From an uncultured Clostridia bacterium (GTDB lineage: Bacteria; Bacillota; Clostridia; TANB77; CAG-465), in assembly GCA_934130595.1 (NCBI GenBank), contig CAKOYF010000006.1:8994-72993 (forward strand): a stretch of 64,000 bases of DNA, read 5' to 3'. Positions 13,498 through 62,507 of the stretch are shown here, piece by piece. Every line of letters begins with the position of its first letter. The stretch's first letter is position 1. The position numbers and the translations under genes are program-made. The notes beneath the pieces were generated by a model. That model did not search any database. It was not told where the DNA came from and saw only the letters and a list, made by a program, of their open reading frames with translations.

Positions 13498-13526
13498 GTT
13501 AGTTAATTTTAATGCTAAATATTTTA

Positions 13527-13583
13527 AACATCTACTTTATTTTTATTTTGTTGTATGTTAACCTATATTTAGGAGGTATATAT
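13527..13583 (+). repeat. 57-nt leader, copy 1 (precedes A1)
   Basis: AACATCTACTTTATTTTTATTTT...AGGAGGTATATAT aligns without gaps to 14121-14177 and includes the SD. Confidence 0.7.
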
Positions 13584-14033
13584 ATGAATAAAAAAAATAT
13601 AATAATTACAATATTTGTGTTTATTGTACTTGTAGCGTTATTTCTTTTATGGAGATTTGTAATTGGATTTAAACTTACTACAGAAAGTAAATTTAGAAAT
13701 GTTGTAAAAAATATTTCAGATATGAGTGTCTACATTGTAGGTAATGACGATCAAAGAGTTGAAATAGATAATAAAGATGATGTAAATAAAATCTTAGACA
13801 CTTTAGCTACAGCTAAAGTTAAAAGAACAACAGACTTATGGATCGGAGGAGCTTATGTATTAGACTTTGTAAATAATAAAACTAATGATGTAATAGAAGT
13901 GGTTATACATCCAGTTCAAATGACAATATCAAATAAACTATATTCTTTTTGCAATGCAGATAATAATGTATATCAAAAAATAGAAGAAATATTAAAAAAA
14001 TATATCGGAGAATCAACTAAATTTAAAAGTTAA
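13584..14033 (+). CDS. small N-terminally anchored membrane protein, paralog A1
   Basis: ATG 13584 follows AGGAGG; the 13512 start in the track is an upstream extension. One TM helix plus a ~115-aa domain. 129/149 residues are identical to A2 by manual alignment. Confidence 0.7.
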   Translation: MNKKNIIITIFVFIVLVALFLLWRFVIGFKLTTESKFRNVVKNISDMSVYIVGNDDQRVEIDNKDDVNKILDTLATAKVKRTTDLWIGGAYVLDFVNNKTNDVIEVVIHPVQMTISNKLYSFCNADNNVYQKIEEILKKYIGESTKFKS

Positions 14034-14043
14034 TATAGAAAAA

Positions 14044-14073
14044 AGGAGAATAGGGTATTACTATTCTCCTTTA
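14044..14073 (+). terminator. hairpin after A1
   Basis: AGGAGAATAG pairs with CTATTCTCCT (10 bp perfect). The downstream T-run is weak. Confidence 0.45.
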
Positions 14074-14120
14074 AGTTTATTATCTAAATAAAAAGGTTTT
14101 ATTTAGATTATTATTTTTTT

Positions 14121-14177
14121 AACATCTACTTTATTTTTATTTTTTTATATGCTAACATATACTCAGGAGGGATATAT
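14121..14177 (+). repeat. 57-nt leader, copy 2 (precedes B1)
   Basis: See 13527-13583. Confidence 0.7.
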
Positions 14178-14645
14178 ATGAAATTAAATAAAAATATAGT
14201 AATGTTAATTATTTTATGTGTTGTTGTTCTTTTAGCAGTAATGGCAGTATTTTTTGTAAATAAAAATAGTGTAAATAATTGCATAAAAGATGAAAAAGTA
14301 CAAGTAGAAACATTAAAAGAAATATATAAAGACATGTTTAGTAATTTAAATACTCAAGATGTAAATATAGTTTTAGATGAAACAGCCTTAAAAAATATTT
14401 TAACAGATGAAAGATTTTCAGAAGAGAATGTTACTAAATTGCAAGAAGTTGAAAAAAATGTAGAAGGAGCACAAAGCACATATACACTATACATTAAGTA
14501 TTCAAAAGATACAGAAGTTATAACAATTGAAGTTGTTGGAAGTGGTGTAGACAATTCAAAAACGACTCAAGAATATAAACTAAATGTAAAAAATGGCAAG
14601 GTAGTTTTTGAACGTTCTGGATTTGGAAATACAATAATGCAATAA
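14178..14645 (+). CDS. small N-terminally anchored membrane protein, paralog B1
   Basis: SD AGGAGGG. One TM helix plus a ~125-aa domain. 137/155 residues are identical to B2 by manual alignment. Confidence 0.7.
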   Translation: MKLNKNIVMLIILCVVVLLAVMAVFFVNKNSVNNCIKDEKVQVETLKEIYKDMFSNLNTQDVNIVLDETALKNILTDERFSEENVTKLQEVEKNVEGAQSTYTLYIKYSKDTEVITIEVVGSGVDNSKTTQEYKLNVKNGKVVFERSGFGNTIMQ

Positions 14646-14682
14646 GTTAATGAAAATATTTATATATTGTGGAGGTATATCT

Positions 14683-15132
14683 ATGAATAAAAAAAGCATT
14701 ATAATTACAATAGCTATTTTCATCGTACTTGTAGCACTATTTCTTTTATGGAGATTTGTAATTGGATTTAAACTTACTACAGAAAGTAAATTTAGGAATG
14801 TTGTAAAAAATATTTCAGATATGAGTGTCTATATTGTAGGTAATGACGATCAAAGAGTTGAAATAGATAATTCAGACGATGTAAATGAAATCTTAGATAC
14901 TTTAGCTACAGCTAAAGTTAAAAGAACAACAGACTTGTGGATTGGAGGAGCATATAGAATAGACTTTGTAAATAATAAAACTAACGATGTAGTAAAAGTA
15001 ATTGTACATCCAGTTCAAGTAAGAATGTTTGGTAAAGTATATTCTTTTTGTAATGCGGATAATAACGTATATCAAAAAATAAAAGAAATATTAAAAAAAT
15101 ACATTGGAGAATCAACTGCTTTTACAAATTAA
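14683..15132 (+). CDS. small N-terminally anchored membrane protein, paralog A2
   Basis: ATG 14683 follows GGAGG. Paralog of A1. Confidence 0.7.
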   Translation: MNKKSIIITIAIFIVLVALFLLWRFVIGFKLTTESKFRNVVKNISDMSVYIVGNDDQRVEIDNSDDVNEILDTLATAKVKRTTDLWIGGAYRIDFVNNKTNDVVKVIVHPVQVRMFGKVYSFCNADNNVYQKIKEILKKYIGESTAFTN

Positions 15133-15175
15133 TATGTAAATCAAAAATAATTACATATATTTAGGAGGGATATAT

Positions 15176-15643
15176 ATGAAATCAAATAAAAATATAGTCA
15201 TGTTAATTATTTTATGTGTTGTTGTTCTTTTAGCAGTAATAGCAGTATTTTTTGTAAATAAAAATAGTGTAAATAATTACATAAAAGATGAAAAGGTACA
15301 AGTAGAAACATTAAAAGAAATATATAAAGACATGTTTAGTAATTTAAATACTCAAGATGTAAATATAGTTTTAGATGAAACAGCATTAAAAAATATTTTA
15401 ACAGATGAAAAATTTTCAGAAGAAAATGTTACTAAATTACAAGAAGTCGAAAAAAATGTAGAAGGAGCACAAAGCACATATACACTATACACTAAGTATT
15501 CAAAAGATGCAGAAGTTATAACAATTGAAGTTGTTGGAAGTGGTGTAAGCAATTCAAAAAGGATTCAACAATATAAGCTAAATGTAAAAAATGGTAAATT
15601 AAATTTTGAGCGTTATAAAGCAGGAACTACAATAGTTGAATAA
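15176..15643 (+). CDS. small N-terminally anchored membrane protein, paralog B2
   Basis: SD AGGAGGG. Paralog of B1. Confidence 0.7.
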   Translation: MKSNKNIVMLIILCVVVLLAVIAVFFVNKNSVNNYIKDEKVQVETLKEIYKDMFSNLNTQDVNIVLDETALKNILTDEKFSEENVTKLQEVEKNVEGAQSTYTLYTKYSKDAEVITIEVVGSGVSNSKRIQQYKLNVKNGKLNFERYKAGTTIVE

Positions 15644-29662: not shown

Positions 29663-30154
29663 ATGCGATACAATAAAGTAAGAAAGATGGACATTTCTAA
29701 TGGACCTGGTGTAAGAGTTTCAATATTTATGCAAGGATGTACTTTTAAGTGTAAAAATTGTTTTAATCCAGAAACTCATGATTTTAAATGTGGAAAAGAG
29801 TTTAGTGAAGACACTATTAATAGGGTATTAGAACTTTGCAATAATGAAAATGTTGAAGGGCTTTCAATTTTAGGTGGTGAACCTATGCACCCAATAAATA
29901 TAGAAGGTACAACAAGACTTGCAAAGGCTTTTAAAGAAAAATATCCAAATAAAAGTATTTGGGCTTGGACTGGTTTTAAATTTGATAGAGATTTAAAAGA
30001 TAAGGAAGTACTAAATTATATAGATGTATTAGTTGATGGACAATATGTAGATGAACTAAGAAATCCTAAATTAAAATGGAAAGGTTCAGAAAATCAAAGA
30101 GTAATAGATGTAAAAAAGAGCCTTCAAGAAGGAAAAGTAGTAATTTTTGAATAA
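29663..30154 (+). CDS. nrdG: anaerobic ribonucleotide reductase activating protein (radical SAM)
   Basis: GCTFKCKNCFNPE cluster motif. 163 aa, immediately after nrdD. Confidence 0.9.
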   Translation: MRYNKVRKMDISNGPGVRVSIFMQGCTFKCKNCFNPETHDFKCGKEFSEDTINRVLELCNNENVEGLSILGGEPMHPINIEGTTRLAKAFKEKYPNKSIWAWTGFKFDRDLKDKEVLNYIDVLVDGQYVDELRNPKLKWKGSENQRVIDVKKSLQEGKVVIFE

Positions 30155-30161
30155 TTTTAGT

Positions 30162-30195
30162 AAAGACATGTTAAAAAATTTAACATGTCTTTTTT
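30162..30195 (+). terminator. terminator after nrdG
   Basis: AAAGACATGTTAA pairs with TTAACATGTCTTT, followed by TTT. Confidence 0.7.
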
Positions 30196-30295
30196 CGACA
30201 TCAAAAAAGGGATTAAAAAGATTTACAAATTAAAATAAATAAAATATAATGCATACGTCGTCGGCGGTAAAATAAAAAAAGGAGTAAAAGAATAT

Positions 30296-31207
30296 ATGGA
30301 AAATAAAAAGGAACTATTGAAAGTAACAAACGACTATGTATTTAAAAGAATATTTGGTCAAAAAGGAAATGAAGATATAACAAGAGGATTCTTAAGAGCA
30401 GTGACTAAAGTAGAATATAATAATATAGATTTAGAGGATACACCAATACTAGAAAGAGATTTAATAGAAAACAAGATGGGAATATTAGACGTAAAAGTAG
30501 TAGCCAACAAAGAGAATAATATAGATATAGAGATGCAAGTAACAAAATCAGAATACATAGCAGAAAGAATATTATGGTATTGGTCAAAATTATATGCAGG
30601 ATCAATAGAAAAAGGAGAAGGATATAATAGCACTAAAAAGGCAATATGTATATTAATAGCAGACTTTAAATTAGAAAAATTAAAAGAGATAGAAAAGTAT
30701 CATACAAAATGGAATATACGAGAAGAAGAGTATAAAAACATAATCTTGACAGACAGATTAGAATTGCATATAATAGAGTTAGAAAAGCTGGAAAGAAGAA
30801 ATAACAAGAGCAAAGAAGAGGAAGAATTACTAAATTGGTGTAAGTTCATAAAATTTCCAGAGAAAGTAGAGGAATCTATAATAATGAAAAATGAGGAAAT
30901 AAAGAAAGCCAAAGAGCAATTAAATAAAATAAGTCAAGATAAAAAGGAAAGAAGACTAGCAGAACTAAGAGAAAAGGCAATAATGGACGAGATGGCAATA
31001 AGAGATAGCGGATATAATGAGGGCAGAAAAGAAGGATTGGAAGAGGGAATACATCGTGGAATTGAACTAGGAAAAGAAGAAGGAGTGAAAAAAGGAAAAA
31101 AAGCAGAAAAAAAGAGTATTGCTCAAAATATGCTAGAAATGAAAATAGATAAAGAAATTATATCAAAAGTTACAGGATTGACTATTAGTGAGATAGATAA
31201 TATGTAA
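30296..31207 (+). CDS. Rpn-family recombination-promoting nuclease / PD-(D/E)XK 'putative transposase' (YhgA-like)
   Basis: N-terminus LLKVTNDYVFKRIFG... and the D..E.Q core (GILDVKV....IDIEMQV). C-terminal E/K-rich tail ends ...ISKVTGLTISEIDNM. Confidence 0.75.
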   Translation: MENKKELLKVTNDYVFKRIFGQKGNEDITRGFLRAVTKVEYNNIDLEDTPILERDLIENKMGILDVKVVANKENNIDIEMQVTKSEYIAERILWYWSKLYAGSIEKGEGYNSTKKAICILIADFKLEKLKEIEKYHTKWNIREEEYKNIILTDRLELHIIELEKLERRNNKSKEEEELLNWCKFIKFPEKVEESIIMKNEEIKKAKEQLNKISQDKKERRLAELREKAIMDEMAIRDSGYNEGRKEGLEEGIHRGIELGKEEGVKKGKKAEKKSIAQNMLEMKIDKEIISKVTGLTISEIDNM

Positions 31208-31499
31208 TAAAAAGAAAGTAGAGGAATCTATAATAATGAAAAATGAGGAAATAAAGAAAGCCAAAGAGCAATTAGATAAAATAAGTCAAGATAAAAAAGA
31301 AAGAAGATTAGCAGAACTAAGAGAAAAGGCAATAAAAGACGAGATGGCAATAAGAGATAGCGGATACAATGAGGGCAGAAAAGAAGGAATAGAAGAAGGA
31401 ATAAGGAAAACAGCGAAGAATATGCTAGAAATAAAAATAGATAAAGAAATTATATCAAAAGTTACAGGATTGACTATTAGTGAGATAGATAATATATAA
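30861..31499 (+). repeat. tandem partial duplication of the rpn 3' end
   Basis: 30861-31207 recurs at 31213-31499, including the GAGGA + 10 nt + ATG context. Copy 2 lacks about 60 nt (HRGIELGKEEGVKKGKKAEKKSIAQ replaced by RKTAK). Confidence 0.85.
31236..31499 (+). CDS. stand-alone copy of the Rpn C-terminal tail (87 aa)
   Basis: MKNEEIKKAKEQLDKISQDKKERRLAELREKAI... is near-identical to residues 197-303 of the upstream Rpn protein. It has its own SD-like GAGGA (31221-31225). Confidence 0.6.
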   Translation: MKNEEIKKAKEQLDKISQDKKERRLAELREKAIKDEMAIRDSGYNEGRKEGIEEGIRKTAKNMLEIKIDKEIISKVTGLTISEIDNI

Positions 31500-31567
31500 A
31501 TAAAGCGGGGCATTTTAGATTTTCTAAAGTGCCTTTTTAATATTTTTATGAAAATAATTAAATACTA

Positions 31568-31614
31568 TTGACAATTGAACATGTATTCAACTATAATATA
31601 AATATAGTTGAATA
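31568..31614 (+). promoter_or_regulatory. cad operon promoter with a 12-7-12 inverted-repeat operator
   Basis: TTGACA (31568-31573) and TATAAT (31592-31597). TATTCAACTATA (31584-31595) and TATAGTTGAATA (31603-31614) are perfect inverted repeats overlapping the -10, as for ArsR/SmtB operators. Confidence 0.65.
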
Positions 31615-31661
31615 ACAATTCAATTGTTCTGGCATATAATGTAAATTGTAAGGAGGTTTAT

Positions 31662-32027
31662 ATGGCAAAGAATGAATTTACTTGTGATTGTAATATAATT
31701 CATGAAGAAGTTGTAAAAAAAGCACTAAAAGTAATGCCTGAAGATGATATTTTTTATAAATTAGCAGATTTTTTTAAAGTTTTAGGTGATACTACTAGAG
31801 CAAAAATACTATTTGCATTAGATCAAAATGAAATGTGTGTATGCGATATAGCAAATACTTTAAATATGAGTAAATCTTCTATTTCTCATCAGCTAAGTAC
31901 ATTAAGAAGAACAGGAATAGTAAAATGTAGAAAAGAAGGTAAAGAAGTATACTATATGTTAGATGATGAACACGTTAAACAATCTTTTGAAGTAGGCCTT
32001 GAACATATTGAACATAAAAATAAGTAA
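31662..32027 (+). CDS. cadC: ArsR/SmtB-family metal-sensing repressor, CadC-like
   Basis: ATG 31662 follows AGGAGG. N-terminal CDC, alpha-3 site ...EMCVCDIANTL..., HTH SISHQLSTLRRTGIV. Close by eye to pI258 CadC. Confidence 0.8.
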   Translation: MAKNEFTCDCNIIHEEVVKKALKVMPEDDIFYKLADFFKVLGDTTRAKILFALDQNEMCVCDIANTLNMSKSSISHQLSTLRRTGIVKCRKEGKEVYYMLDDEHVKQSFEVGLEHIEHKNK

Positions 32028-46093: not shown

Positions 46094-47818
46094 TTACTCT
46101 ACAACAGGTGGAATAAAGTTTTCAATTGCATCTCTTAATTTGGGATGATGGATTACAAAGTGAATAGATGGAGCAGTAGCTTTAGAAATCATAACCCAGT
46201 TTTTTTCACACATTAAAACTTGTATATTTTTAAAAGTATGAGTGACATTAATTTTAAATTTATAATTTGGATTTTCATTACTATATTTTTTTGTTAATTC
46301 TAGATGCTTCATATATTCATCATAAGTATAGTAAATCTTTTTCTCATAAAAACAATCAGACAAGCAAAGATAAGGTGAAGCTTTTTCAAAATCTTCTTTA
46401 CTTATTTCTTGAATTTCGTCTTCAAATATATTTTCTTTTATTACTTCTTCAATTATTTTATTTTGCATTTTAACAGAATTTTTTATTATTTCAATATCTT
46501 TATCTGGCACATTGTTGCGTTTTAACATTTCTAGTAATAATTCATTAGATATTGTATGAATTGGAAGAGAAGATAAAATTCTTCTTCTATTAGCTTTTGT
46601 TTTTGCACTTGAATTCAAAAATATGTTATATGAATTTATAGAATCTTCTCTATATATTTCCATAAGAGGTGTAGCTTTGTTTAGTAGAAGTTTTGCTTTT
46701 GTCTTGTAGTAATTTAAATCATTTTTAGAAGTTAGTAGTGTATATTTTCCTTTATCATGAGATCCAGTTATACATTCTCCTGTAAGAGCAACGTTTTCTG
46801 AAATGTAGTCAAAATGACAATAGAAATTACTATGAGGACCTTTTAAAAAGTAAGGTGAGACTTGTCCTGTCATGTATATAGGTATCCAGCTTTCTAGCCC
46901 TAACATCATTTCATTAAAAGGTCTATCAATGTTATGAATAATGTTTAGATGAAGTCCTTTTTTTAGCATCATTGCAATTGCAAACATCCATTTTTTTCCA
47001 AAATCAATATCTTCTGCCATATCTTCCATAGGCATATCACTACACATAAAAACTGGCTCATTTGACTTAGAAAGTACAGTTGTTTTAAAAAAGTCTAGTT
47101 CTCCTTTTTTCATTTCTTTTATACCATAATATGTTTTAGAAATAGGTTTATAAAATGGAATAAAAGGAACTTTTAATTCATTAAAATGTATTGCTTTTAT
47201 ATATTCATTTAAATCAAATTCATCTAAGTGAACTAAGAAATCATCTATATAATTTTTTGGAGAAGAAGAGTTTGTTAAAATCCAATTTTCAAGAGCAGAA
47301 TAATATTTAGATTTAATTTTTAACTCATCAGTACTGCTTTTAGTTATCAAAGATATAGTCTCTAAATCTTCCTCAGTAGTATATTTAGATGTTATATAAT
47401 TACATACTCCTTCAACAAAGCTTTTTGGCTTAGATGGAGTTCTACTACCATTTCGTATTTTAGAAATAAATGAAGCGTCATAATTAATAAAACGAGCTAA
47501 ATCTGCAATATTAATATTTAAAACACTAGCTAATTCATTAAAATTACTTCCTAGTTGTTCTAAAGAAATAGTTATATCATTTAAGGTGCTAGATAAACAA
47601 AGATAAATATCTTTTTTAGATATATTTTCTTTATCTTTTCCTAACATATATAATCCATTAACTAATGATTCGAATTGTTTACTTTTTATATTTGGAGTTC
47701 TTTCTCCATTACGATATCTGCTAATAACAGCTGAAGAAAGTCCAGAAGCAGATATTAAATCTTTTGGGGAACATTCAAATCTTTCCATATAATTGTTTAG
47801 TTGCTGTGAAAAATTCAT
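46094..47818 (-). CDS. large (574 aa) regulator with two N-terminal XRE-like HTH modules and an uncharacterised ~400-aa C-terminal region
   Basis: Two copies of an HTH recognition pattern: GLSSAVISRYRNGERTP and DASFISKIRNGSRTP. SD GGAGG lies upstream on the minus strand. Confidence 0.7.
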   Translation of the reverse strand: MNFSQQLNNYMERFECSPKDLISASGLSSAVISRYRNGERTPNIKSKQFESLVNGLYMLGKDKENISKKDIYLCLSSTLNDITISLEQLGSNFNELASVLNINIADLARFINYDASFISKIRNGSRTPSKPKSFVEGVCNYITSKYTTEEDLETISLITKSSTDELKIKSKYYSALENWILTNSSSPKNYIDDFLVHLDEFDLNEYIKAIHFNELKVPFIPFYKPISKTYYGIKEMKKGELDFFKTTVLSKSNEPVFMCSDMPMEDMAEDIDFGKKWMFAIAMMLKKGLHLNIIHNIDRPFNEMMLGLESWIPIYMTGQVSPYFLKGPHSNFYCHFDYISENVALTGECITGSHDKGKYTLLTSKNDLNYYKTKAKLLLNKATPLMEIYREDSINSYNIFLNSSAKTKANRRRILSSLPIHTISNELLLEMLKRNNVPDKDIEIIKNSVKMQNKIIEEVIKENIFEDEIQEISKEDFEKASPYLCLSDCFYEKKIYYTYDEYMKHLELTKKYSNENPNYKFKINVTHTFKNIQVLMCEKNWVMISKATAPSIHFVIHHPKLRDAIENFIPPVVE

Positions 47819-47990: not shown

Positions 47991-49301
47991 ATGAAAAAAA
48001 CTAGATTATTTGTGCTTGCTATTATTACACTAATGATAGCAATAGTTACTAACAACAATGTATATGCAGCAAGTGAAAAAAATGAAGTAACTCTAAAATT
48101 TGATGGAGGAATTGTGCGTGATGGCTATGTAGAATATAGCAAAATAGGAAAGTTACAATTATTCAAAGGCGATGAATTAGTTACAAATATTGATAATGGA
48201 ATGAAAATAGATTTAAATGAGGCAGATTATCAATTTGTAATAGAAGAAATTCAAATTGAAGATACAGGAAGTGTTGTAGGTCCTGCACCAGTAAAATTAA
48301 ATATTAACAATTGGTACTATCCTATGACAACAATAGTGGGTGAAGATAAATCTACATTTGAACTAGAATCAAGTAAGTTTAATGGAACTTTAAATGTTAA
48401 ATTTACAAGAGCAAGAACAGTTGTTAATACAAATGTGGAAAATGTTTATGAAGATATAACATCAAAAGGTGTAATTGACCTGACAGATGAAAAAGAATAT
48501 GTAATAGATTTTTCTAAAACTGATGAGTTGACAGAAGGATTAAAATCATTTGCAGATTTAGATAAAATACTATATTATAAGAGAGATAATAATAGTCTAT
48601 TAGCAACAGATAATGAAAATGAAGCTGTTATAAAGATAGTTGGAAATAGATCAGAAAATAAAGCTATATTATCTGCAGTAAATGTTGGAACTAAAAAAAG
48701 TGAAAATTTTAAAGGATTTCATATGCAATATACAGGTTCTTCACTTAATTATAATAGTACTGATGATGGCATTATATATGAAACGAGATATGATTATTAT
48801 ACTAGATGTACTTATGATTTTACATTTCAATATGCCAAAGAAGAAGTTAGTCCTAAAGAATATGAGTTTATTGAAGGAGCTAATCAAGTATATACAATAG
48901 ATAAGTCAAAAAATGCAGTATTTAAAGTAAATACAATCGCTAAAGATATAAAAGAAATTTATATAGATGGTAGTATTTTAGATGCTAAAAATTATGTTTT
49001 AGATTCTCAAGATGGAATAATTACAATTTTAGAAGAATATTTAAAAAGTTTAGCTATAGGAGAGCATAAAATAAAAGTTACTTTCTTAGATGAAAAAGAA
49101 ATTGAAACTAATTTTGAAGTTAAGGCAGAGCAAAGCCAATCAGATATAAAAGATGAAGAAAAAAATGAAAGTATTGAAAATACAGATCCAAATCCAGAAA
49201 CAGGAGATAATGTTTTAACAAATTTAACAATATCTGTAATATCTATATTAGGTGTTGCTATTGCTTTAATGATTAATAATAAAAAAATTAAGGAAGATTA
49301 G
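47991..49301 (+). CDS. cell-wall-anchored surface protein with an NPETG sorting signal
   Basis: Signal peptide (...NNNVYA/AS). The C-terminus has NTDPNPETGD, a hydrophobic helix and a NNKKIKED tail. Confidence 0.75.
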   Translation: MKKTRLFVLAIITLMIAIVTNNNVYAASEKNEVTLKFDGGIVRDGYVEYSKIGKLQLFKGDELVTNIDNGMKIDLNEADYQFVIEEIQIEDTGSVVGPAPVKLNINNWYYPMTTIVGEDKSTFELESSKFNGTLNVKFTRARTVVNTNVENVYEDITSKGVIDLTDEKEYVIDFSKTDELTEGLKSFADLDKILYYKRDNNSLLATDNENEAVIKIVGNRSENKAILSAVNVGTKKSENFKGFHMQYTGSSLNYNSTDDGIIYETRYDYYTRCTYDFTFQYAKEEVSPKEYEFIEGANQVYTIDKSKNAVFKVNTIAKDIKEIYIDGSILDAKNYVLDSQDGIITILEEYLKSLAIGEHKIKVTFLDEKEIETNFEVKAEQSQSDIKDEEKNESIENTDPNPETGDNVLTNLTISVISILGVAIALMINNKKIKED

Positions 49302-49313
49302 GAGGAAAAGAAA

Positions 49314-50783
49314 ATGAAATTAAAAAAAGCATTATTTATGATGGTAATTGCTGTAGTTGGAATTTTAGGGATGACAACAGTAAGTGCTGCAACTATTAGT
49401 GACAACGGACAATATTCATTAGTATTAACTGTTAATGATGAAAATGGTGATATTGATGGAGAGTATGCAAAAATCGTAAGATTTGATGTTGATGAAGGAG
49501 AAACAACAGTTAAGTTATCTGAACTTACAAAAGATGTTACCCCATTTAATGGGAAAAATGAATTTTCACATTGGGTAAATAGAAATAAAGAAAAAGTAAA
49601 TGAAGATTTATCATTAGCAGATTTTAATAGTAATGGTTGCTTTTATAAATCAACAGGTGAAGAAGTAAATTATACTAATGGTTTAACTCTTGAAGCAAGA
49701 TTTGAAGGGAAAGCATTAAATGAAAGTGATAAATATTATGTGATATTTGATGGATTTGCTGGAACAGTAAATGGTCAATCAAAACTAAGATTAGATTTTA
49801 AAAAGGAAGAATTTCAAAACGTTGATTTAACCAAATATGTCCCTATAAGAAAAGGATATACTTTTATAGGTTGGGATTTAGATGGAAAAATTGTTACTAC
49901 TGTAGATTCAAGTGCTTTTGCAAATGATGCTGTAGTTACACTTACTGCAACATATACTAAAGATACTTTTGATGGAGCAGATAGAGTTTTAATATTAAAT
50001 GCTAATGGTGGAACTATTTCTGGAAATACATCTAATAAATATGACTATTTAGGTGGTGGAAATTCAGGAACAGCTATGTCACTTTTACCATATATACCAG
50101 TAAGAGAAGGATATACTTTTAATGGATGGAATTCTAAAAAAGATGGAAGTGGAAAAAATTATAAGTATATATATTGGAGATTATGGGATAATGATGGAAA
50201 AACAGATGTAGATAAAGATACTATAATAACAAATCAGCTTGGTGCACAGTATTACCAAAATGTAACTTTATATGCTTCTTGGACAAAAAATGCTGTTACT
50301 GAAGAAGATACTGTTAAAGAAATTAATAGTAATGGAGATATAAAATCAAGTATTACTTTTGAAAAAGAAGTTAGCAGTGATTATGTACTAGATATTAAAA
50401 ATATAGAAGTAAAAGATAATTTAACAAATAAAGATGTTAAATATGTAGTAGATATAAATGTATTAGAAAATGGTGAAATAATTAAAATTAGTGATTTAAA
50501 AATGAAAATAAGAATTGCTTTACCAGAAGAATTAAAAGGATTTGATAAATATGAAGTGGTATATATATCAGATGATGAAATAAAAGAAACAATACCAGCA
50601 ACAATAGAAGATGGCTACATTGTATTTGAAACATCACATTTAAGTCAATATGGAATTGTAGCAACAAAGATTGAAAATACAGATCCAAATCCAGAAACAG
50701 GAGATAATGTTGCACTAATTGGAATGATGTTTATGATGTCAATGCTAGGAATAATGAGTGCTAAATTAAAACTAGTAAAATAA
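49314..50783 (+). CDS. cell-wall-anchored surface protein with Listeria-Bacteroides (Flg_new) repeats and an NPETG sorting signal
   Basis: Signal peptide. GYTFIGWDLDGK and GYTFNGWNSKKDGSGKNY repeats. The C-terminus has NTDPNPETGD, a hydrophobic helix and KLKLVK. Confidence 0.75.
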   Translation: MKLKKALFMMVIAVVGILGMTTVSAATISDNGQYSLVLTVNDENGDIDGEYAKIVRFDVDEGETTVKLSELTKDVTPFNGKNEFSHWVNRNKEKVNEDLSLADFNSNGCFYKSTGEEVNYTNGLTLEARFEGKALNESDKYYVIFDGFAGTVNGQSKLRLDFKKEEFQNVDLTKYVPIRKGYTFIGWDLDGKIVTTVDSSAFANDAVVTLTATYTKDTFDGADRVLILNANGGTISGNTSNKYDYLGGGNSGTAMSLLPYIPVREGYTFNGWNSKKDGSGKNYKYIYWRLWDNDGKTDVDKDTIITNQLGAQYYQNVTLYASWTKNAVTEEDTVKEINSNGDIKSSITFEKEVSSDYVLDIKNIEVKDNLTNKDVKYVVDINVLENGEIIKISDLKMKIRIALPEELKGFDKYEVVYISDDEIKETIPATIEDGYIVFETSHLSQYGIVATKIENTDPNPETGDNVALIGMMFMMSMLGIMSAKLKLVK

Positions 50784-50816
50784 TAAAAATAAATTATATA
50801 TCAAGGTGAAAAAAAT

Positions 50817-51938
50817 ATGAATGAAAAAACTAAGGGAAAAGTATTTGTTTCAGTAATAATTATACTGGTTATAATTATCGTAGCCCTTGTAATAGCTCTT
50901 TTTATCAATAAAGGCGGTAAAGAAAATATGGAAGATTCTAAAACTCAAACAAAAGAGAAAAATATTAAAATAGTTGAAGATGAAACTAGTAAAATTCAAT
51001 TAGAAGAGTATAAAACAGATGTATTTACAATGAAAAAACCAAAAGGATGGAATGTTGAAACAGGAGGCTCAGGGGTTTTTTATACAATTAGAACATATGA
51101 TAGTAAAAATACAAATAATCAAATATTCTTGATGATAAAAGTACAACCTTTATTAAAATCTACTTCAGCTAAAAATATGTGGCAAAATTATTATGCTATG
51201 ACTGGATATAATTCACAATATAAATTGTTTGCTGATGCAGTAGTTTTAGATACTCCAACAACAGAAGGTTTTTATAATAAATTTAATGAAATAGCTAAGT
51301 TTGTTAAAGAAATAGATCCATCATTTAGTACTATAGAGTTTCCTAACTTTAGTAATTTTACAAAACAAGAGGAATTTGCCTCTCAAGCTTCAATGAAAAG
51401 TGTAGCCTTAGATAGTAAAGTGTTAAGAGCTACATTTAATGGAGATAATTCTAAAGAGGGTGAAGGACTTTTTATGGCATCTGTTGTAAATTTTGGAAAT
51501 CAATATAGTGATGATGGATATTATATGGTATATGATATTACATCAATAACTTCTGAAAAAGATCAATTTATAAATTACAAGGATATTTTATTAGAGTCTG
51601 TAAACTCAATAAAGTTTAGTGATAGCTATGTAAAACAAACAATAGACAATGGAAATGCTCAAACTCAGCAATCACTTGCTTTAAATGCTTCTATTCAGAA
51701 ATCTTTTGATTCATATATGGATGCTTGGGAAAATAGAAATAAGAGTTATGATATTATGAGTCAAAAGCAAAGTGATGCAACTCTTGGATATGAAAGAGTA
51801 TACGATACTGAAAGTGGCGATATATATAAAACATATAATGGATTTACAGATGATTATGATGGTCAAAGATATAAAACAATAACAGATGATATGTACACTC
51901 AAAAAACTAGTGGATATATAGAAAAAATATATAATTAG
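50817..51938 (+). CDS. hypothetical N-terminally anchored extracytoplasmic protein
   Basis: One TM helix (VFVSVIIILVIIIVALVIALFI) followed by a ~330-aa domain. No sortase TLxTC or other motif recognised. Confidence 0.6.
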   Translation: MNEKTKGKVFVSVIIILVIIIVALVIALFINKGGKENMEDSKTQTKEKNIKIVEDETSKIQLEEYKTDVFTMKKPKGWNVETGGSGVFYTIRTYDSKNTNNQIFLMIKVQPLLKSTSAKNMWQNYYAMTGYNSQYKLFADAVVLDTPTTEGFYNKFNEIAKFVKEIDPSFSTIEFPNFSNFTKQEEFASQASMKSVALDSKVLRATFNGDNSKEGEGLFMASVVNFGNQYSDDGYYMVYDITSITSEKDQFINYKDILLESVNSIKFSDSYVKQTIDNGNAQTQQSLALNASIQKSFDSYMDAWENRNKSYDIMSQKQSDATLGYERVYDTESGDIYKTYNGFTDDYDGQRYKTITDDMYTQKTSGYIEKIYN

Positions 51939-51977
51939 ATTCTGAATAAAGTTATAATACTGAATAATAATATAAAA

Positions 51978-52032
51978 AGGGATGATACTGAAGTAACTTA
52001 ATCAATAATACTTCAAGTACATCTCTTTTTTT
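51978..52032 (+). terminator. terminator after the surface-protein operon
   Basis: Long imperfect hairpin AGGGATGATACTGAAGTA / TACTTCAAGTACATCTCT, followed by T7. Confidence 0.55.
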
Positions 52033-52105
52033 GAAATCAAATTTGATAATTGTTGTGTTTTGTGATATACAATTTAAAGAATAAAAGAAAGGTAGAGATG
52101 ATATA

Positions 52106-53080
52106 ATGTGTACAGCAGCAACATATAAAACAAAAGATTTTTATTTTGGAAGAACTTTAGATTATGAATTTTCTTATGGAGATGAAATAACAATCACTCC
52201 AAGAAATTATGTTTTTAATTTTAGAGAAAAAGGAAAAATAGAGAGTCATTATGCAATAATAGGTATGGCATATGTTTATGATAATTATCCACTTTATTAC
52301 GATGCAATGAATGAAAAAGGCGTAGCTATAGCAGGACTTAATTTTGTAGGAAATGCATCATATAATGAAAAAGTAGAAGGAAAGGATAATATAGCTCAAT
52401 TTGAACTTATTCCTTGGATATTATGTCAGTGTGAAAATATAGATGATGTAAAGAGACTAATAGAAAAAATGAATATAACTAATGTAGCATTTAATGAAAA
52501 ATTACCACTTGCACAACTTCATTGGATTATTTCAGACAAAGATAAAAGTATAACAGTAGAGGCTGTTAAAGATGGAATTAAAGTATATGATAATCCAGTA
52601 GGTGTATTAACTAACAATCCACCTTTTGATAAGCAAATGTTCGAGTTAAATAAGTATATTCATCTTAGTGTAGAAAATCCTAAAAATACTTTTTCAGAAA
52701 ATTTAGACTTAGAATATTATAGCAGAGGAATGGGAGCAATAGGACTACCTGGAGATTTATCTTCTCAATCTAGATTTGTAAGAGTAGCTTTTGTTAAGAT
52801 GAATTCTATATCTAGTGATGATGAAATGGAAAGTGTTAGTCAATTTTTCCACATATTAAACAGTGTAGATCAACAAAGAGGATGTTGTAAGTTAGGTGAA
52901 AATAAATATGAAATTACAATATACACTTCATGTTGCAATGTATCAAAGGGAATATACTACTATACAACATATAACAATCACCAAATAAATGCAGTAGATA
53001 TTAATAGAGAAGATTTAGATACATCTAGCCTTATAAGATATAAACTAAATACTAATGAAAATATAAATTATCAAAATTAA
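52106..53080 (+). CDS. choloylglycine hydrolase family protein (bile salt hydrolase-like Ntn hydrolase)
   Basis: MCTAATYKTKDFYFGRTLD has the nucleophile Cys2 directly after Met. 324 aa. Confidence 0.8.
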   Translation: MCTAATYKTKDFYFGRTLDYEFSYGDEITITPRNYVFNFREKGKIESHYAIIGMAYVYDNYPLYYDAMNEKGVAIAGLNFVGNASYNEKVEGKDNIAQFELIPWILCQCENIDDVKRLIEKMNITNVAFNEKLPLAQLHWIISDKDKSITVEAVKDGIKVYDNPVGVLTNNPPFDKQMFELNKYIHLSVENPKNTFSENLDLEYYSRGMGAIGLPGDLSSQSRFVRVAFVKMNSISSDDEMESVSQFFHILNSVDQQRGCCKLGENKYEITIYTSCCNVSKGIYYYTTYNNHQINAVDINREDLDTSSLIRYKLNTNENINYQN

Positions 53081-53136
53081 AAAAATCTATTACATAAAAT
53101 TATAATTTGTGATATAATACAAATGTATCGAGCAGT

Positions 53137-53178
53137 AAATAACGTAAGTCCAGATAATTAGGATTACGTTATTTTTTT
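53137..53178 (+). terminator. hairpin plus T-run between bsh and the MATE gene
   Basis: AAATAACGTAAGTCC pairs with GGATTACGTTATTT (one bulge), followed by T7. It lies downstream of a TGTGATATAAT element (53108-53118). Confidence 0.55.
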
Positions 53179-53208
53179 GCCGTGTAAGTGAGTAGAAAGG
53201 AAAAAATT

Positions 53209-55197
53209 ATGGAAAAACTAAATCTAGGAAAAGAAAAAATTGGAAAATTATTAGTAGCTTTTTCAATACCTTGCATAATTAGTATGTTGATTAACTCAGT
53301 GTACAATATAGTTGATCAAATATTTATTGGAAAAGGTGTAGGAAGTTTAGGAAATGCTGCTACTAATGTTATATTTCCAATTGTAATTATTTGTAATGGA
53401 ATAGCACAACTAATTGGAAATGGATGTGCGGCTAATTTAAGTTTACTTTTAGGACAAGGCAAGAAAAAAGAGGCCAAAAATATGGTAGGCTCATCAATAA
53501 CTATGTTAGTTATTTTATCACTACTTGTTTGTGGTTTAGGAGAGTTATTTTTACCAAAGCTAGTTTATTTATTTGGATGTACTAAAAATGCGTATGAATT
53601 GTCTATGATATATGGCAGAATAATTTTAGCAGGAGCCCCTTTTATGATAATTTATACTGGCATGGCAGCTATAATTAGAGCAGACGGGTCTCCTAAATAT
53701 TCAATGGTTTGTCTACTTAGTGGAGCAATAGTCAATATAATATTAGATCCTATTTTTATTTTTGGATTAAATTTGGGAGTAGCAGGTGGAGCAATAGCTA
53801 CTATATTAGGTCAGCTATTATCTTTTGTAATAGCAATATTATATGTATTTAAGATGAAAACTATAACATTAGAGCTTAAAGATTATAAAGTAGATAGTTC
53901 AATATTTAGAACTTTAAGTTATGGTTTATCTAGCTTTGTAATACAAATGACAGTATTAGTATTATTTATTTTAATGAATAATGTTATGACTAAATACGGA
54001 GCAGCTACAAAGTATGGAGAAGACATTCCACTTTCTGTATATGGAGTAGTTTCAAAGCTTAATAGTTTCTATATTTCATTTATATTAGGTCTTGCAGTTG
54101 GAGCTCAACCAATTATTGGATTTAACTATGGAGCAGGAAATATCCAAAGAGTAAAGAAAACAATAAAATATGTCGTAACAATAGCACTTATGATAGGAAT
54201 TGTATTTAATGTATTATTACAACTTATACCAGGACAGCTAGTTAATCTTTTTGCAACACAATCAGATCCAAATTATAACTTATTTATAGAATTTGGAATT
54301 AAATGCTGTAGAATATTCTTAATGCTTTGTTGCTTAAATGCATTAGAAATGACATGTAGTATTGTATTTCAATCATTAGGAAGTGTAAAAAAAGCAAGTT
54401 TTGTATCATTTTTAAGACAAATTATATTATTCTTACCATTATGTTTATTCATGTCTAGTAAGATGGGTCTTATGGGTGCATTATATGCAGCACCAATAGC
54501 AGATGCAATTTGTTTTGTTATTGTATTAACTTTATTTATATTTGAATATAAAAATATTGGAAAAGAAAATCATAAAGAAGAGAAAGCCTTAGAAAGTACA
54601 TCAGTAGAGAAGAATATTTCTAAAGAAAACGTTATAGTAACAATAAGTAGACAGTATGGCTCTGGCGGAAGATATGTAGGAAGAATATTAGCACAAAAGC
54701 TAGGAATTAAGTTTTGGGATAAAGAATTAATTGAATCAGTAGCAAAAGAATCCGGAATGACAGAAGAATTTGTATCAGAAAATGAACAAAAAAGAGAATG
54801 GGGAGCAAATTTAAATTCTGAATATAATAGTGAAGACGAATTATATATAGCTCAAACAAAAGTAATAAAAGAAATTGCTACTCAAGGCTCTTGTGTAATA
54901 ATTGGAAGATGTGCAGATTATATTTTAAAAGATAATCCAAATGTAATAAGAGTATTCATTTATAGTGATGAAAATGCCAAAATAAAAAGAGCAATTAAAC
55001 ATTATAACTTGAATGAGAAAAATGCTAAAAAAGAAATAGAAAAAATAGATAAAGAAAGAGCAAGACATTATAAATATTATACAAATCAAGAGTGGGGAAA
55101 TTTGAATAATTATGATATTGCTTTAAATAGTGATTATTTAGGAGTAGAAAAAACAGCCAAAATAATAGAAGAAATGATATTATCTAAAACTAAATAA
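53209..55197 (+). CDS. MATE-family efflux transporter fused to a C-terminal cytidylate-kinase-like (Cytidylate_kin2-type) domain
   Basis: About 12 TM helices with a MATE-like N-terminus (KLLVAFSIPCIISMLINSVYNIVDQIFIG). From ~54625: VIVTISRQYGSGGRYVGRILAQKLGIKFWDKELIE... Confidence 0.8.
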   Translation: MEKLNLGKEKIGKLLVAFSIPCIISMLINSVYNIVDQIFIGKGVGSLGNAATNVIFPIVIICNGIAQLIGNGCAANLSLLLGQGKKKEAKNMVGSSITMLVILSLLVCGLGELFLPKLVYLFGCTKNAYELSMIYGRIILAGAPFMIIYTGMAAIIRADGSPKYSMVCLLSGAIVNIILDPIFIFGLNLGVAGGAIATILGQLLSFVIAILYVFKMKTITLELKDYKVDSSIFRTLSYGLSSFVIQMTVLVLFILMNNVMTKYGAATKYGEDIPLSVYGVVSKLNSFYISFILGLAVGAQPIIGFNYGAGNIQRVKKTIKYVVTIALMIGIVFNVLLQLIPGQLVNLFATQSDPNYNLFIEFGIKCCRIFLMLCCLNALEMTCSIVFQSLGSVKKASFVSFLRQIILFLPLCLFMSSKMGLMGALYAAPIADAICFVIVLTLFIFEYKNIGKENHKEEKALESTSVEKNISKENVIVTISRQYGSGGRYVGRILAQKLGIKFWDKELIESVAKESGMTEEFVSENEQKREWGANLNSEYNSEDELYIAQTKVIKEIATQGSCVIIGRCADYILKDNPNVIRVFIYSDENAKIKRAIKHYNLNEKNAKKEIEKIDKERARHYKYYTNQEWGNLNNYDIALNSDYLGVEKTAKIIEEMILSKTK

Positions 55198-55241
55198 TAA
55201 AATATTGAATATTTTTAAAATAAAAAATATAATATAGTATT

Positions 55242-56468
55242 ATGAAAAATAAAATAGTTATTGTGTTATTTATAATATTAAATATGTTTTTATATAAAGT
55301 GGTAAATGCTGATGAAATAGATCTAAGTGCTAAAGCAGCAGGCGTGTATACATTAAATGATCTAGAGTGTTTGTATGATAAAAACACTCAGGAAAAATTA
55401 CCACTAGCAAGCATTACTAAAATTATGACTGCTATTGTTTGTATAGATAATGTAAGTGATTTAAATGAAGAAGTAGTCGTAAATTTACCAGAAGTAGAAA
55501 AATATTATGATGAGGATTATTCAACTGCTGGACTTAAAGATGGACAGAAAATATCATATTATGATTTAATTGCCACAATGCTCATTCCATCAGGAGCAGA
55601 TAGTGCTAGTTGTATTGCTTTAAATGTATTTGGAGATTACTCTAAATTCATATATGCAATGAATGAAAAAGCAAAAGAACTTGGAATGAATGATACCTCA
55701 TTTGAAAACCCAATAGGAAGTGATAATGAAAGTAATTATTCAACAGTTCATGATATTGCATTAATGATGAAATATGCACTTTCAAATGAAAATATTAAGA
55801 CTTTTTTGTCTGAGTATGAATTTACAACTAAAGACCAATCTATAACAGTACATAATGCATTATTTCAACTTGCAGATATATATGGAATAAACGTTGAAAA
55901 AATAAGTGGTGGAAAAACTGGAATGACAGAAGATGCACAATATTGCCTGGCAAGTTATTCATATAATGAAGAAGAACCTTTAATTTGTATTGTACTTGGC
56001 TCACAAATAAAGCGAGGAACACTATATCATTTAACAGATAGTGAAAAGTTATATGAATATATCTCTCAAAATTATTCAATGAAAAATGTAATACTAGAAG
56101 GTGAAAATATTACATCAATACCAGGATATCATACAACAAATAGTGCTAAATTAATCTCTAGCAAAAATGTTGGTATATATTTAAAAAACGAAGAAGAAAT
56201 AGATAAGGAAAAATTAAAAATTGAATATACAGATATGCCACTAATATCTGCTAAAAATAAAAAAGGTGATGTGATAGGAAAAGCTTCAATATACTATAAA
56301 GATAGATATATAACAGATATAGATTTAATACTAAGTGAAAATATGAAATTTAGTATTATAAAATGGTCAAAAGACAATACTCAAATTGTATTAGTAATAG
56401 AACTAATAGTAATAGTTGCGGGAGTTTATTGTTTAATACGTAGAAAAAAAGGTTATAAGAAAATTTAG
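55242..56468 (+). CDS. D-alanyl-D-alanine carboxypeptidase (S11, PBP5-like) with a C-terminal membrane anchor
   Basis: SxxK (ASITKIMT) and KTG (GGKTGMT) motifs, a signal peptide and a C-terminal TM helix. Confidence 0.8.
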   Translation: MKNKIVIVLFIILNMFLYKVVNADEIDLSAKAAGVYTLNDLECLYDKNTQEKLPLASITKIMTAIVCIDNVSDLNEEVVVNLPEVEKYYDEDYSTAGLKDGQKISYYDLIATMLIPSGADSASCIALNVFGDYSKFIYAMNEKAKELGMNDTSFENPIGSDNESNYSTVHDIALMMKYALSNENIKTFLSEYEFTTKDQSITVHNALFQLADIYGINVEKISGGKTGMTEDAQYCLASYSYNEEEPLICIVLGSQIKRGTLYHLTDSEKLYEYISQNYSMKNVILEGENITSIPGYHTTNSAKLISSKNVGIYLKNEEEIDKEKLKIEYTDMPLISAKNKKGDVIGKASIYYKDRYITDIDLILSENMKFSIIKWSKDNTQIVLVIELIVIVAGVYCLIRRKKGYKKI

Positions 56469-56474
56469 AAAAAG

Positions 56475-56519
56475 ATAGAAACATTTTACTTAAAAAATAT
56501 AATGTTTCTATTTTTTTTT
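56475..56519 (+). terminator. terminator after the carboxypeptidase gene
   Basis: ATAGAAACATT pairs with AATGTTTCTAT (11 bp), followed by T9. Confidence 0.7.
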
Positions 56520-56600
56520 CGTATTAGTTGAAAAAAGTTAAATATTTGGTGTATTATTTAAGTAACAAAATGCGAAGAATATAATTAGGAGGAGTTTTTC

Positions 56601-59600
56601 TTGAAAAATAAGGTTAAAATAATCTCAATTTTTTTGAGCGTATTTTTTTTAATGACAATAAATATTGTAAGAGCAACTGAAGTTTTACCAGATGATGCGG
56701 CTTATGTTTCATCTGTTCAGATTATACAAACTAAGACAGGAACAGGACCATGGGACGATAACGATGAGCCTGGTAATGATAGCTCAGAAGGTAATGATAT
56801 AGTTCGTTCATTTGATCAAGTAACATGGACAGTAGAAAATACAATGGCGCTAAAAGAAGAAAGTAGTAATAGCTATGTTGGTGGAGAGATAAATTTTGAA
56901 GCTACACTTCCAGATGAACTGGATTCTAAACAAGCTAAATGGGATACTGCTTCAATGAGTTGGATTACAAATGCAAAGCTATCATCTGACGGAAAAACAT
57001 TAACAGGAAAATATAAATTAACACAAGAAAAAATAACTATACCAGGAAAACAGACATTAGTTTTTGTAGTTAAGTTATATGGTGTTAAAAATGGAACTAC
57101 ATTTAAACCAACTATAAAAACATGGCTAAATGGAAATGATGAAAAATACTATGCAACTGTAATACCAGATGAAGTAAAGGTAAGTGCTGCTCCTAGATAT
57201 AATGTTAAAATTACTCAAAATGGAAGGGCGCAAATTAAAACTACATTAAACTATGGAAATGGAGACACTAAAGGAAGAATATATGGATATGGTATTGCAT
57301 TACAACTATATAATACAAGTGTATCTAAAGGATTAAGAGGAATAGAATATGCAACTGGGGACATTACTTTTGATATAGATATGAAACTTGAAAGAACATT
57401 ATTTGGAAGTACCAAAAGAGAAGATATTACTTCAGACTGTACACCTGTACTATGGAACTATAAGGCAAATGCTGTAACAAATAGTGGAAATATTTCAGGC
57501 AGAACTATGTATTTTGGAAACTCATATCATAGATATGAACTAACATTACCTCTTGGAGTAAGGGTAAATGAAAGAAGATATTCTGTATATAATTCGGGAA
57601 AAATTAATGTTGTACAAGAAGGTAGTAAGTTAAAATTTACTATTTCAGATTATGATTTTGATGGAACCTTCCCAATATGGTGTTATTCATATGGACAAAC
57701 CACAGAAAGAACTATAAACTATACAGACAATATTGGTAACTTTAGTGTTGCATATATGCAAGTATTTGTACCAGACAATGATGCAAGTACTATAAGCAAC
57801 AGAAATTATTACTTAACACTTAGTGATAACAATTTTAAAGCTACATCAGTTTCAGGAGCTACTACTACAACTCAGATGAATACATCAGATGATGCTAATA
57901 CATTACAGCACATACTATATAAACCAGGAGAGTATAATCAAAACATATGGCCAGTAGAACCAGTTACATCTACTGCTCTAGGGCATTCAACTAACTTTAT
58001 GGGAGATGCATATGGTACATTAGGGCAAAAAATAGATGTATTAACTAAGTTTAATATGAGTGTAAGTGCAGACGATAATGTATACTCTGCAACTAGATTA
58101 ATAAAATATGATGCAGATGCATACGAGCCAATATATTATTCGGATGGAACTAAGTATAGATTATCTTCATTTGCAGGTACAATGAAATTTGATACATATT
58201 ATGTTACTAAAAAAGATGGAACTAACTGGGTATCGCAAGATGAAATGAATAGTGCAGATATTTTAGATTTAAATGTATATAAAACGATAGAAGAAATACC
58301 AGAAGGAGAAGTGTGTGTAGGAACATATTGTGAATCTACTGCTGATCCAGATGGATATATATCTAAATTTACAGGAGACAATAACTGTTTGTGTGTTCCT
58401 TTGAGAATTAAGCAAACAGCTACAATTGGAAAGACTTATGCAATAGTTCCAAGAACTAAATTATGGATAAATTATGTAGATAGAGATGAATATAATATTT
58501 TAAATAATACAAGTTATCCAAAAGTTACTTGGGATTCTGGCGTAAGAAAGTATATAAAAACAGAATATGATGAAGATGGAAAAATGAAGTCTGGAACTCA
58601 TAGTGGTGGTATGTCATATGGTGCTACAATGCTTATAGTAGCAGGTGATGTAACTGTTCAAAAATATGCTATAGATGAAAATGGAAACAGAAAAACTAAT
58701 TATGATATTTCTCAAAATGATACAGAGGTAAAATATAAAGTGGTTCCAAGCATTACTAAAGATGCAAATATTACTACAGATATAACAAATATTACTTTAA
58801 AAATTACAGATACTTTACCAGTTGGAATGCATTATGTTGCTAATTCTGCAAATTATGGAGAACCGGAAATTATAAATAACTCTGATGGAACAGAAACTCT
58901 TATTTGGTATAAATATGATTGTACTGCCGGTAAAGAAATAGAGCCACTTACATATACAGCACATATTAGTGAAGATGTAGAAAATGGTAAACAACTTACT
59001 TCTACAGTTGTTGTTTTAGCTGATGCAGATAAGGTCGGAATCACAAATGAAAAAAACAGAACGGCAACAGAAACAATACAAATTATAAACCTAGCATCAC
59101 ATAGATTATATAAATCTACATCAAAGGCAATAGTTGAAGAAAATGAACAAATAAAATATTCTATATCATATAAAAATAATACAGATAGTGCAATATCTAA
59201 TTTTCAACTTTTAGATATATTACCATATAATGGAGATTCGAGAGGAACAAGTTATACAGGAATGTATAAAGTAGAAAAGATTGTTGTAACACAGCTTGAC
59301 TCAAGTGGAAACAGCATATCTAATGATAATTTAGTTATGAGTTATAGCTCAGATGAAAATTCAAGAACAACTGTAACAAGTAAAGATGAAAATCTTGGAG
59401 ATAATTGGACTAAATTTAGTCCTAATGCAACACTGCAACAATATATGACTGCATTTTGTATAAAAGGAAAAATAGATGGTCAAGTAGAATTAAATGTAGA
59501 TATATATTTGAGTCCGTCAAATAATAACGGACTAGATAAATACGTAAACAGCGCTACTGCACAAGTATACAAAGAAACAGATGAAATGACTACGGGTAAT

Positions 59601-62484: not shown

Positions 62485-62507
62485 GTATAGGAAAAAATGA
62501 TATAAGA

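Follow-up and report, generated by a model that had tools for sequence, protein, structure and literature searches.

The rpn locus and its nuclease gene

The window analysed here is the whole of a 64,000-nucleotide (nt) stretch of DNA from an uncultured Clostridia bacterium (contig CAKOYF010000006.1), in which we see a gene of the Rpn family, rpnL (30296–31207), followed by a short open reading frame (ORF), rpnSs (31236–31499), that repeats the gene's own 3′ end; these and the other features of the locus described below all lie on the forward strand. As set out by Zhong et al. (2023, PMC10400941), rpn genes encode a toxic nuclease, RpnL, together with a small antitoxin, RpnS, made from an internal promoter and start; the tail shared by the two proteins bears a hypervariable tract of 4-amino-acid (aa) repeats, and plasmid-borne Rpn protects against phages.

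The product of rpnL, a 303-aa protein and putative toxin, matches Pfam PDDEXK_2 (PF12784; E = 6e-45, 154.1 bits against a cutoff of 27.4) and, over residues 11–301, TIGR01784, the ‘Rpn family recombination-promoting nuclease/putative transposase’ (E = 5e-45, 154.4 bits, cutoff 52.1); the Rpn family corresponding to TIGR01784 / COG5464 and, in Pfam, to PDDEXK_2. Its close homologues also carry the NCBI name Rpn family, and the identity as an Rpn-family PD-(D/E)XK nuclease, which an earlier note had read from the letters of this DNA without database searches, is borne out. A putative active-site motif, D65 ... E79-M-Q81 (LDV ... DIEMQ; 30488–30538), falls in invariant alignment columns, with D65, E79 and Q81 unchanged across 26 homologues, down to 60% identity; family membership suggests a catalytic role for these residues and their equivalence to those of RpnA. 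With the full-length AlphaFold2 (AF2) model (pLDDT, the model's own confidence score, 71.6) the top Foldseek matches are the PD-(D/E)XK nucleases McrC, XisH, N.BspD6I and SgrAI, all at E > 0.6; a phmmer search of the PDB with the full-length protein gave no match.

The historical ‘putative transposase’ label, together with the multi-copy presence of rpn in the species and its position at rearrangement breakpoints (see below), could be taken to mean that the gene is the transposase of an insertion sequence (IS) and the repeat a scar of transposition. We regard this as highly improbable: terminal inverted repeats and target-site duplications are both lacking, the duplicated segment is coding sequence arranged as a direct tandem with an unbroken frame, the exchanges seen between loci resemble homologous recombination within rpn, and the literature argues against autonomous transposition. 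Repeat and inverted-repeat searches, which at rpn returned only short AT-rich chance matches and hairpins that are terminators or an operator, confirm the remark in the earlier note that no IS-like terminal inverted repeats flank the gene. The 303-aa gene is thus an Rpn nuclease, not a transposase.

A tandem duplication of the rpn tail

In the window, which is AT-rich, positions 30861–31212 are duplicated head-to-tail as 31213–31504, with the ORF list, pairwise alignment and a repeat finder in agreement; Tandem Repeats Finder listed short internal runs only and left this 352-nt duplication unreported. The first unit, of 352 nt, is the last part of rpn, comprising a Shine–Dalgarno (SD)-like GAGGA (30869–30873), the in-frame ATG at 30884, the remaining tail ORF and the stop; the second repeats this layout around the free-standing tail ORF (GAGGA at 31221–31225, ATG at 31236). 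Each unit begins 8 nt ahead of its GAGGA, holds that motif 10 nt 5′ of its ATG, and closes just past its stop codon. The units are 95% identical over the first 191 nt and 86% identical over the last 125 nt, and differ in length by 60 nt—an identity far beyond chance. The same arrangement, with an identical 87-aa ORF, is found on 14 independent metagenome contigs from different samples, which rules out an assembly artefact of this window as the source of the duplication.

Both the repeat of the tail with its SD-like GAGGA and ATG, and the open frame of 87 aa with a stop of its own, stand as the earlier note had them; rpnSs is intact and lies 28 nt past the rpn stop. The same cannot be said of the difference between the units, which had been described as a clean deletion of about 60 nt: some 16 nt adjoining the gap also diverge (KKSIAQNML vs RKTAKNML), and the population data identify the two tail versions as distinct alleles, each recurring in other strains. 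The suggestion that one and the same tail protein is made twice is likewise only partly upheld, since the first 47 and last 27 residues of the RpnSs protein are near-identical to those of the internal product, but the two differ by five 4-residue units in the tract implicated in pairing and their sameness is hence doubtful.

Conserved signals for a predicted separate expression of the tail

Upstream of rpn, a terminator-like hairpin (30162–30198; a perfect 14-nt inverted repeat, 30162–30175/30179–30192, and then a T run) closes the nrdD-nrdG operon and is predicted to isolate the rpn unit on its 5′ side. A consensus scan places a promoter-like site between this hairpin and the gene (TTTACA-17-TATAAT, 11/12; 30222–30250), and a sigma-70-type promoter matching the consensus at all 12 positions within the coding sequence itself (TTGACA-17-TATAAT; 30746–30774), 110 nt upstream of the internal start. 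Across 24 distinct homologue DNA versions, both hexamers of the internal promoter are perfect in 18, and the Leu codon of the −35 element is TTG in 23, against 15% TTG usage in these genes, whilst the spacer varies freely at synonymous sites. An SD-like tetramer precedes the conserved internal Met in all 15 distinct homologue versions, using G-rich codons such as GAG even though just 21% of the Glu codons of these ORFs are GAG. The predicted internal promoter and SD/ATG are therefore conserved against codon bias, in support of the internal in-frame start proposed in the earlier note.

Downstream, an intrinsic terminator follows rpnSs (31507–31545; one found in the scan, with 0.1 expected in shuffles). 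As it is the sole terminator found within 30100–31700, rpnL/rpnS and rpnSs are probably co-transcribed; and rpnSs, having no copy of the internal promoter, would be the final cistron transcribed from the rpn promoter(s). Beyond the terminator, a second perfect sigma-70 consensus promoter (31568–31597) overlaps a 25-nt inverted repeat (31571–31595 / 31603–31627); this region (31568–31640) precedes the genes for an arsR-family regulator, an HMA protein and a P-type ATPase, and is probably the operator of this repressor.

The tail resembles a solved antitoxin

The putative cognate antitoxin, RpnS, is the predicted 107-aa in-frame internal product of rpn (30884–31207), recognised by its conserved Met and SD; its free-standing paralogue, RpnSs (31236–31499), is 20 aa shorter. 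The 87-aa sequence aligns to the last 84 positions of TIGR01784 (190–273; E = 2.6e-12) and is assigned, in precomputed data, to the Pfam family PF27070 HTH_Rpn_C. A profile built from the tail proteins matches PDB entry 7TH0, the crystal structure of the E. coli RpnA-S antitoxin (E = 0.0063). The AF2 model of the 87-aa protein (pLDDT 76) consists of one long helix and then two short helices, and superposes on 7th0 in Foldseek with a TM-score of 0.75 and a root-mean-square deviation of 1.0 Å, at 34% identity over 38 columns (E 1.2, not significant alone). Profile and model together indicate that the tail is homologous to the solved antitoxin, a three-helix, HTH-like domain. The Pfam domain DUF4351 (PF14261), which the cited text gives as an annotation of RpnSs in ‘some species’ and not as universal in the class (PMC10400941), does not match the tail even at E ≤ 10. 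A tblastn search of 50,697 phage records with the tail gave no match, and hence no sign of phage-encoded RpnS decoys.

The difference in length between the two proteins sits within a hypervariable tract of 4-residue G-x-x-x units (31010–31114; Gly at tail residues 43, 47, ... 71). In the RpnL tail this reads G-YNE-G-RKE-G-LEE-G-IHR-G-IEL-G-KEE-G-VKK-G..., and in the free-standing copy, where there are only four Gly-spaced units, G-YNE-G-RKE-G-IEE-G-IRK; the 60-nt difference corresponding to 20 aa, or five units fewer. Homologues extend this into ladders with steps of 4 aa, their free-standing tails measuring 87, 91, 95, 99, 103, 107, 111 and 115 aa and their full-length proteins 283/287/291/295/299/303/307 aa. 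In E. coli, one added 4-aa repeat abolishes neutralisation unless both partners carry it (PMC10400941); by this published rule, a five-unit mismatch in the pairing tract makes the 87-aa protein probably non-cognate for the adjacent RpnL with its 107-aa tail, and so probably not its inhibitor.

It is against this rule that the idea of rpnSs as a second, functionally equivalent source of cognate antitoxin, raising or decoupling the dosage for the adjacent RpnL, has to be held. The near-identity of the two ends of the protein to RpnS, the same SD/ATG and the predicted co-transcription all speak for it, as does the suggestion in Koonin's commentary that decoupling may add regulatory flexibility (PMC10400984). 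Nevertheless, the window's two products differ by 20 aa in precisely the specificity tract in which a single added repeat was enough to abolish neutralisation in E. coli (PMC10400941) and, taken with the survey described below, we judge such a dosage role unlikely.

Free-standing tails in related strains

We surveyed relatives of the locus on gut metagenome contigs (Hadza and other gut samples) from an uncultured gut Clostridia species, and see that it has at least three rpn loci: that of the window (locus A; nrdD-nrdG-[rpn]-arsR-family/HMA/ATPase), a second between SpoIVB-like/DUF402 and GNAT/pheST genes (locus B), and a third in which rpn adjoins gap-pgk-tpi (locus C). Spare tails number 0, 1 or 2 per locus in these relatives and measure 87, 99, 107 or 111 aa. 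The window pairs an RpnL tail of 107 aa with a free-standing tail of 87 aa; elsewhere, RpnL tails of 91, 95 and 100 aa are each followed by one of 107 aa, RpnL tails of 99 aa by one of 87, 107 or 111 aa, and RpnL tails of 87, 95 or 111 aa by none. In every two-unit array surveyed, the free-standing tail is mismatched to the internal tail, which counts against the dosage role. The three-unit arrays (L006, L028/L031), in which an RpnL tail of 107 aa is followed by tails of 107 and 111 aa, or one of 99 aa by tails of 99 and 111 aa, count in its favour: here the internal tail recurs unchanged as the first spare tail.

The downstream copies are maintained rather than decaying, as the earlier note had supposed. 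Anchoring the search on RpnL, which avoids selection for intact tails, all six complete downstream tails were intact; across all loci none of 61 tail starts is disrupted; and the ratio of non-synonymous to synonymous polymorphism (pN/pS) is 0.18 among free-standing units (8 distinct, pS ~0.17) and 0.16 among internal units. Of 80 rpn loci in representative genomes, only about five are followed by a tail-only ORF (e.g. in Desulfovibrio and Halovibrio), a frequency that fits sporadic, independent origins. 

These data also bear on whether the spare tail is a neutral, recent duplicate produced by unequal crossing-over, that serves no function itself and has not existed long enough to decay. Its copy number is polymorphic (0–2) among close strains, the low count in representative genomes agrees with such a view, RefSeq calls the comparable E. 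coli gene, ypaA, a pseudogene, and the comparison of internal and free-standing units in the window rests on only ~10 substitutions. On the other side are the lack of any disrupted copy among the 61 tail starts and the pN/pS of 0.18, the accompanying pS of ~0.17 indicating that the free-standing units are not all very young; moreover, the duplication is bounded so as to take in exactly the SD and the stop codon, free-standing tail proteins occur in abundance in the various samples, and the YpaA protein has been detected in E. coli (PMC10400941). We therefore consider a purely neutral duplicate decidedly unlikely.

In another strain (L122), the rpn gene found at this chromosomal site matches, at 848/852 nt, a fusion of the window's nuclease domain to its 87-aa cassette, and the downstream flank is identical; the spare tail thus serves, in that strain, as the real tail of a full-length Rpn. 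On contigs of metagenome-assembled genomes in GTDB (L083 and others), the rpn genes that match the window do so at only 80–82% identity (blastn), so the species of the window has no clear counterpart among the representative genomes.

At loci A and B, the alleles met most often combine an intact tail ORF with a nuclease domain that carries a nonsense mutation or a frameshift. The most abundant of these (L013–L016 at locus A, L018–L021 at locus B) all have the nuclease inactivated, and one of the tail proteins, P0022, is indexed in 253 blocks. In L013 the frame meets a premature stop after codon 99, D77-I78 are lost to a 6-nt deletion, and a further deletion, of 26 nt, takes the internal −35 with it as well; L018 has a single premature stop in the nuclease domain. 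The two retain intact tail ORFs of 95 or 91 aa. Loss of the nuclease before the tail is the order of decay expected for a toxin–antitoxin pair, and may be read as an indirect hint of toxicity and its neutralisation.

Relatives of the segment 29663–31660 (L113–L118, L121–L123, L002 and L023) carry near-identical rpn genes, with each left flank (nrdG or DUF402) occurring together with each right flank (arsR-family or GNAT), on contigs of up to 144 kb from different samples and assemblers. The four combinations suggest reciprocal exchange between two rpn loci, probably in the form of a polymorphic chromosomal inversion, though assembly chimeras at the ~0.9-kb rpn repeat may offer an alternative account.

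Comparison with known systems

The earlier note knew of no described architecture in which the tail also exists as a separate downstream gene. This claim of novelty fails: free-standing rpnSs genes are published for E. coli, with ypaA after rpnE and rpnCSs after rpnC, the protein having been detected (PMC10400941), and Koonin's commentary remarks on them (PMC10400984). The E. coli copies arose independently, each from its own upstream gene (PMC10400941). The locus is accordingly a fresh example of a known toxin–antitoxin and phage-defence design, and not a new architecture; a literature search for later work on Rpn found nothing beyond Zhong et al. 2023 and its commentary.

As in rpnE-ypaA and rpnC-rpnCSs, the full-length rpn gene here contains an in-frame internal start and has a small ORF, a copy of its own tail, behind it on the same strand, and the loss of rpnSs by fusion of the N-terminal domain to the spare tail, reported for E. 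coli (PMC10400941), is seen here in L122. The spacer between the genes is 12 nt in the K-12 pair and 28 nt here. Our direct check of the K-12 sequences gives 57 aa for the internal RpnES and 61 aa for YpaA, a gain of one KLEG unit, so that this pair too is mismatched, by one unit, where the copy in the window has five fewer; the K-12 ypaA (NC_000913.3 2357816–2358001; L112) is a pseudogene in RefSeq, yet its protein is among those detected by Zhong et al. (PMC10400941). The nuclease belongs to PF12784 here and to PF04754 in the E. coli rpnE and rpnC systems; K-12 RpnE carries an annotation as an inactive nuclease, in contrast to the intact motif of the window gene; and arrays with two spare tails, found among the window's relatives, further distinguish them from rpnE-ypaA. 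The small proteins are longer than those of E. coli (87–107 aa against 57–61 aa) and their tract begins ~43 residues past the internal Met, rather than 8–20, because of a conserved N-terminal helix of ~40 aa.

E. coli RpnA L/S and plasmid RpnP2 L/S have in common with the window a PD-(D/E)XK nuclease with a tail produced independently (in the window, as predicted) by way of an internal promoter and start, a hypervariable 4-aa tract and a 7TH0-like tail fold. Unlike the window they have no free-standing copy, and sequence identity to them is low, the tail being linked only at the level of a profile (E = 0.0063) and the full-length protein without a phmmer match; toxicity, inhibition and phage defence have been measured for RpnA and RpnP2, whilst the window locus is known from its sequence. 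The rpn gene of Clostridioides difficile, likened here by description only, comes from the same class and has an internal ribosome-binding site and start and 4-aa repeat variation between strains; the part of the paper cited demonstrates expression of its RpnS, in E. coli, and mentions no free-standing copy (PMC10400941). A more distant parallel is hsdS of type I restriction systems (the TAEL repeats of EcoR124I/II), where specificity also depends on how many 4-residue repeats a helical spacer contains, and where recombination likewise brings diversification; the families are unrelated, however, with hsdS repeats setting the spacing of DNA half-sites and Rpn repeats the pairing of toxin and antitoxin proteins.

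Other features of the window

Elsewhere in the window, a unit of ~1 kb that holds two ORFs is present as two tandem copies at 13512–15643 (173/155 and 160/155 aa, 91–96% nt identity between the copies); none of these ORFs matches Pfam significantly. A Gram-positive pilus/adhesin cluster with internal sequence repeats occupies 47991–64000 (SpaA prealbumin-like, GramPos_pilinD1, SdrD_B, MucBP and Listeria-Bacteroides repeat domains); just upstream of it, on the opposite strand, lies the gene for a 573-aa HTH protein (46094–47818).

Discussion

The sequence anatomy of the locus, its family membership, the conservation of its expression signals, the maintenance of the ORF and the interchange of cassettes between strains are all observed directly. 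The explanation we favour, at a probability of roughly 0.7, is of an rpnL/rpnS module to which unequal crossing-over has added rpnSs, a spare tail that is maintained, co-transcribed, probably non-cognate and able to be swapped onto the nuclease. According to this explanation, rpnL (30296–31207) would encode a PD-(D/E)XK DNA nuclease, and the internal promoter (30746–30774), with the SD and ATG at 30884, would allow separate synthesis of its C-terminal 107 aa as RpnS, which, by homology, would bind and inhibit RpnL. Unequal crossing-over would have duplicated an ‘SD + tail + stop’ unit to give rpnSs (31236–31499), transcribed together with rpnL on a message predicted to end at the terminator at 31507. 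The RpnSs protein, with five units fewer in its specificity helix, is most likely a non-cognate variant, not an extra dose of antitoxin, and would probably act as an alternative or reserve cassette for the tail, which recombination between the direct repeats could fuse to the nuclease domain, thereby changing the specificity of RpnL and RpnS in one step. As long as it stands free, RpnSs could in addition neutralise an RpnL paralogue whose repeat number matches its own. Toxicity, inhibition, phage defence and pairing specificity are in each case ascribed to this locus through its homologues.

Several points weigh against this explanation. The E. coli Rpn proteins tested by experiment are of another Pfam family (PF04754), and the only result that the cited part of Zhong et al. 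reports for the Clostridial type is expression of RpnS, from the C. difficile gene (PMC10400941). No defence island surrounds the locus, whose flanks are housekeeping operons (nrdDG; arsR-family/HMA/heavy-metal P-type ATPase), and PADLOC returned nothing meaningful for it. Confidence in the full-length AF2 model is only medium, and none of its PD-(D/E)XK fold matches reaches significance. With repeats that start ~43 residues after the internal Met, as opposed to 8–20 in the published cases, the E. coli pairing rule may not carry over in full. The survey is biased against broken copies, since most of its loci were reached by way of intact proteins; and as cassettes move between internal and free-standing positions, the pN/pS of the free-standing units cannot count as separate evidence that selection acts on tails while they stand free.

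More tentatively, and as something we think possible but do not yet favour, the tandem tails could constitute a store of alternative specificity cassettes, re-paired with one nuclease domain by recombination between tail units and between rpn paralogues at two loci, so diversifying toxin/antitoxin pairing in gut Clostridia, with the rpn repeats acting as breakpoints of a polymorphic inversion. Such programmed-looking use of cassettes is unframed in the Rpn literature, where only the loss of rpnSs by fusion is noted.

For annotation, the gain is that the 87-aa ORF can be named as an RpnS paralogue and the 303-aa gene relieved of its transposase label. For the family, the locus adds a Clostridial, PDDEXK_2-type example to an rpnL/rpnS/rpnSs design hitherto characterised only in E. 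coli. Zhong et al. leave as a question what drives and mediates change in repeat number, and what role the free-standing copies play (PMC10400941); the population surveyed here, in which the same nuclease domain occurs with tails of 87–111 aa, the spare tails are without exception intact and for the most part mismatched, and at least one strain (L122) shows exactly the fusion predicted from the window, makes that question directly testable with defined natural alleles, and amounts to a natural experiment on the evolution of the tract that would set pairing specificity.

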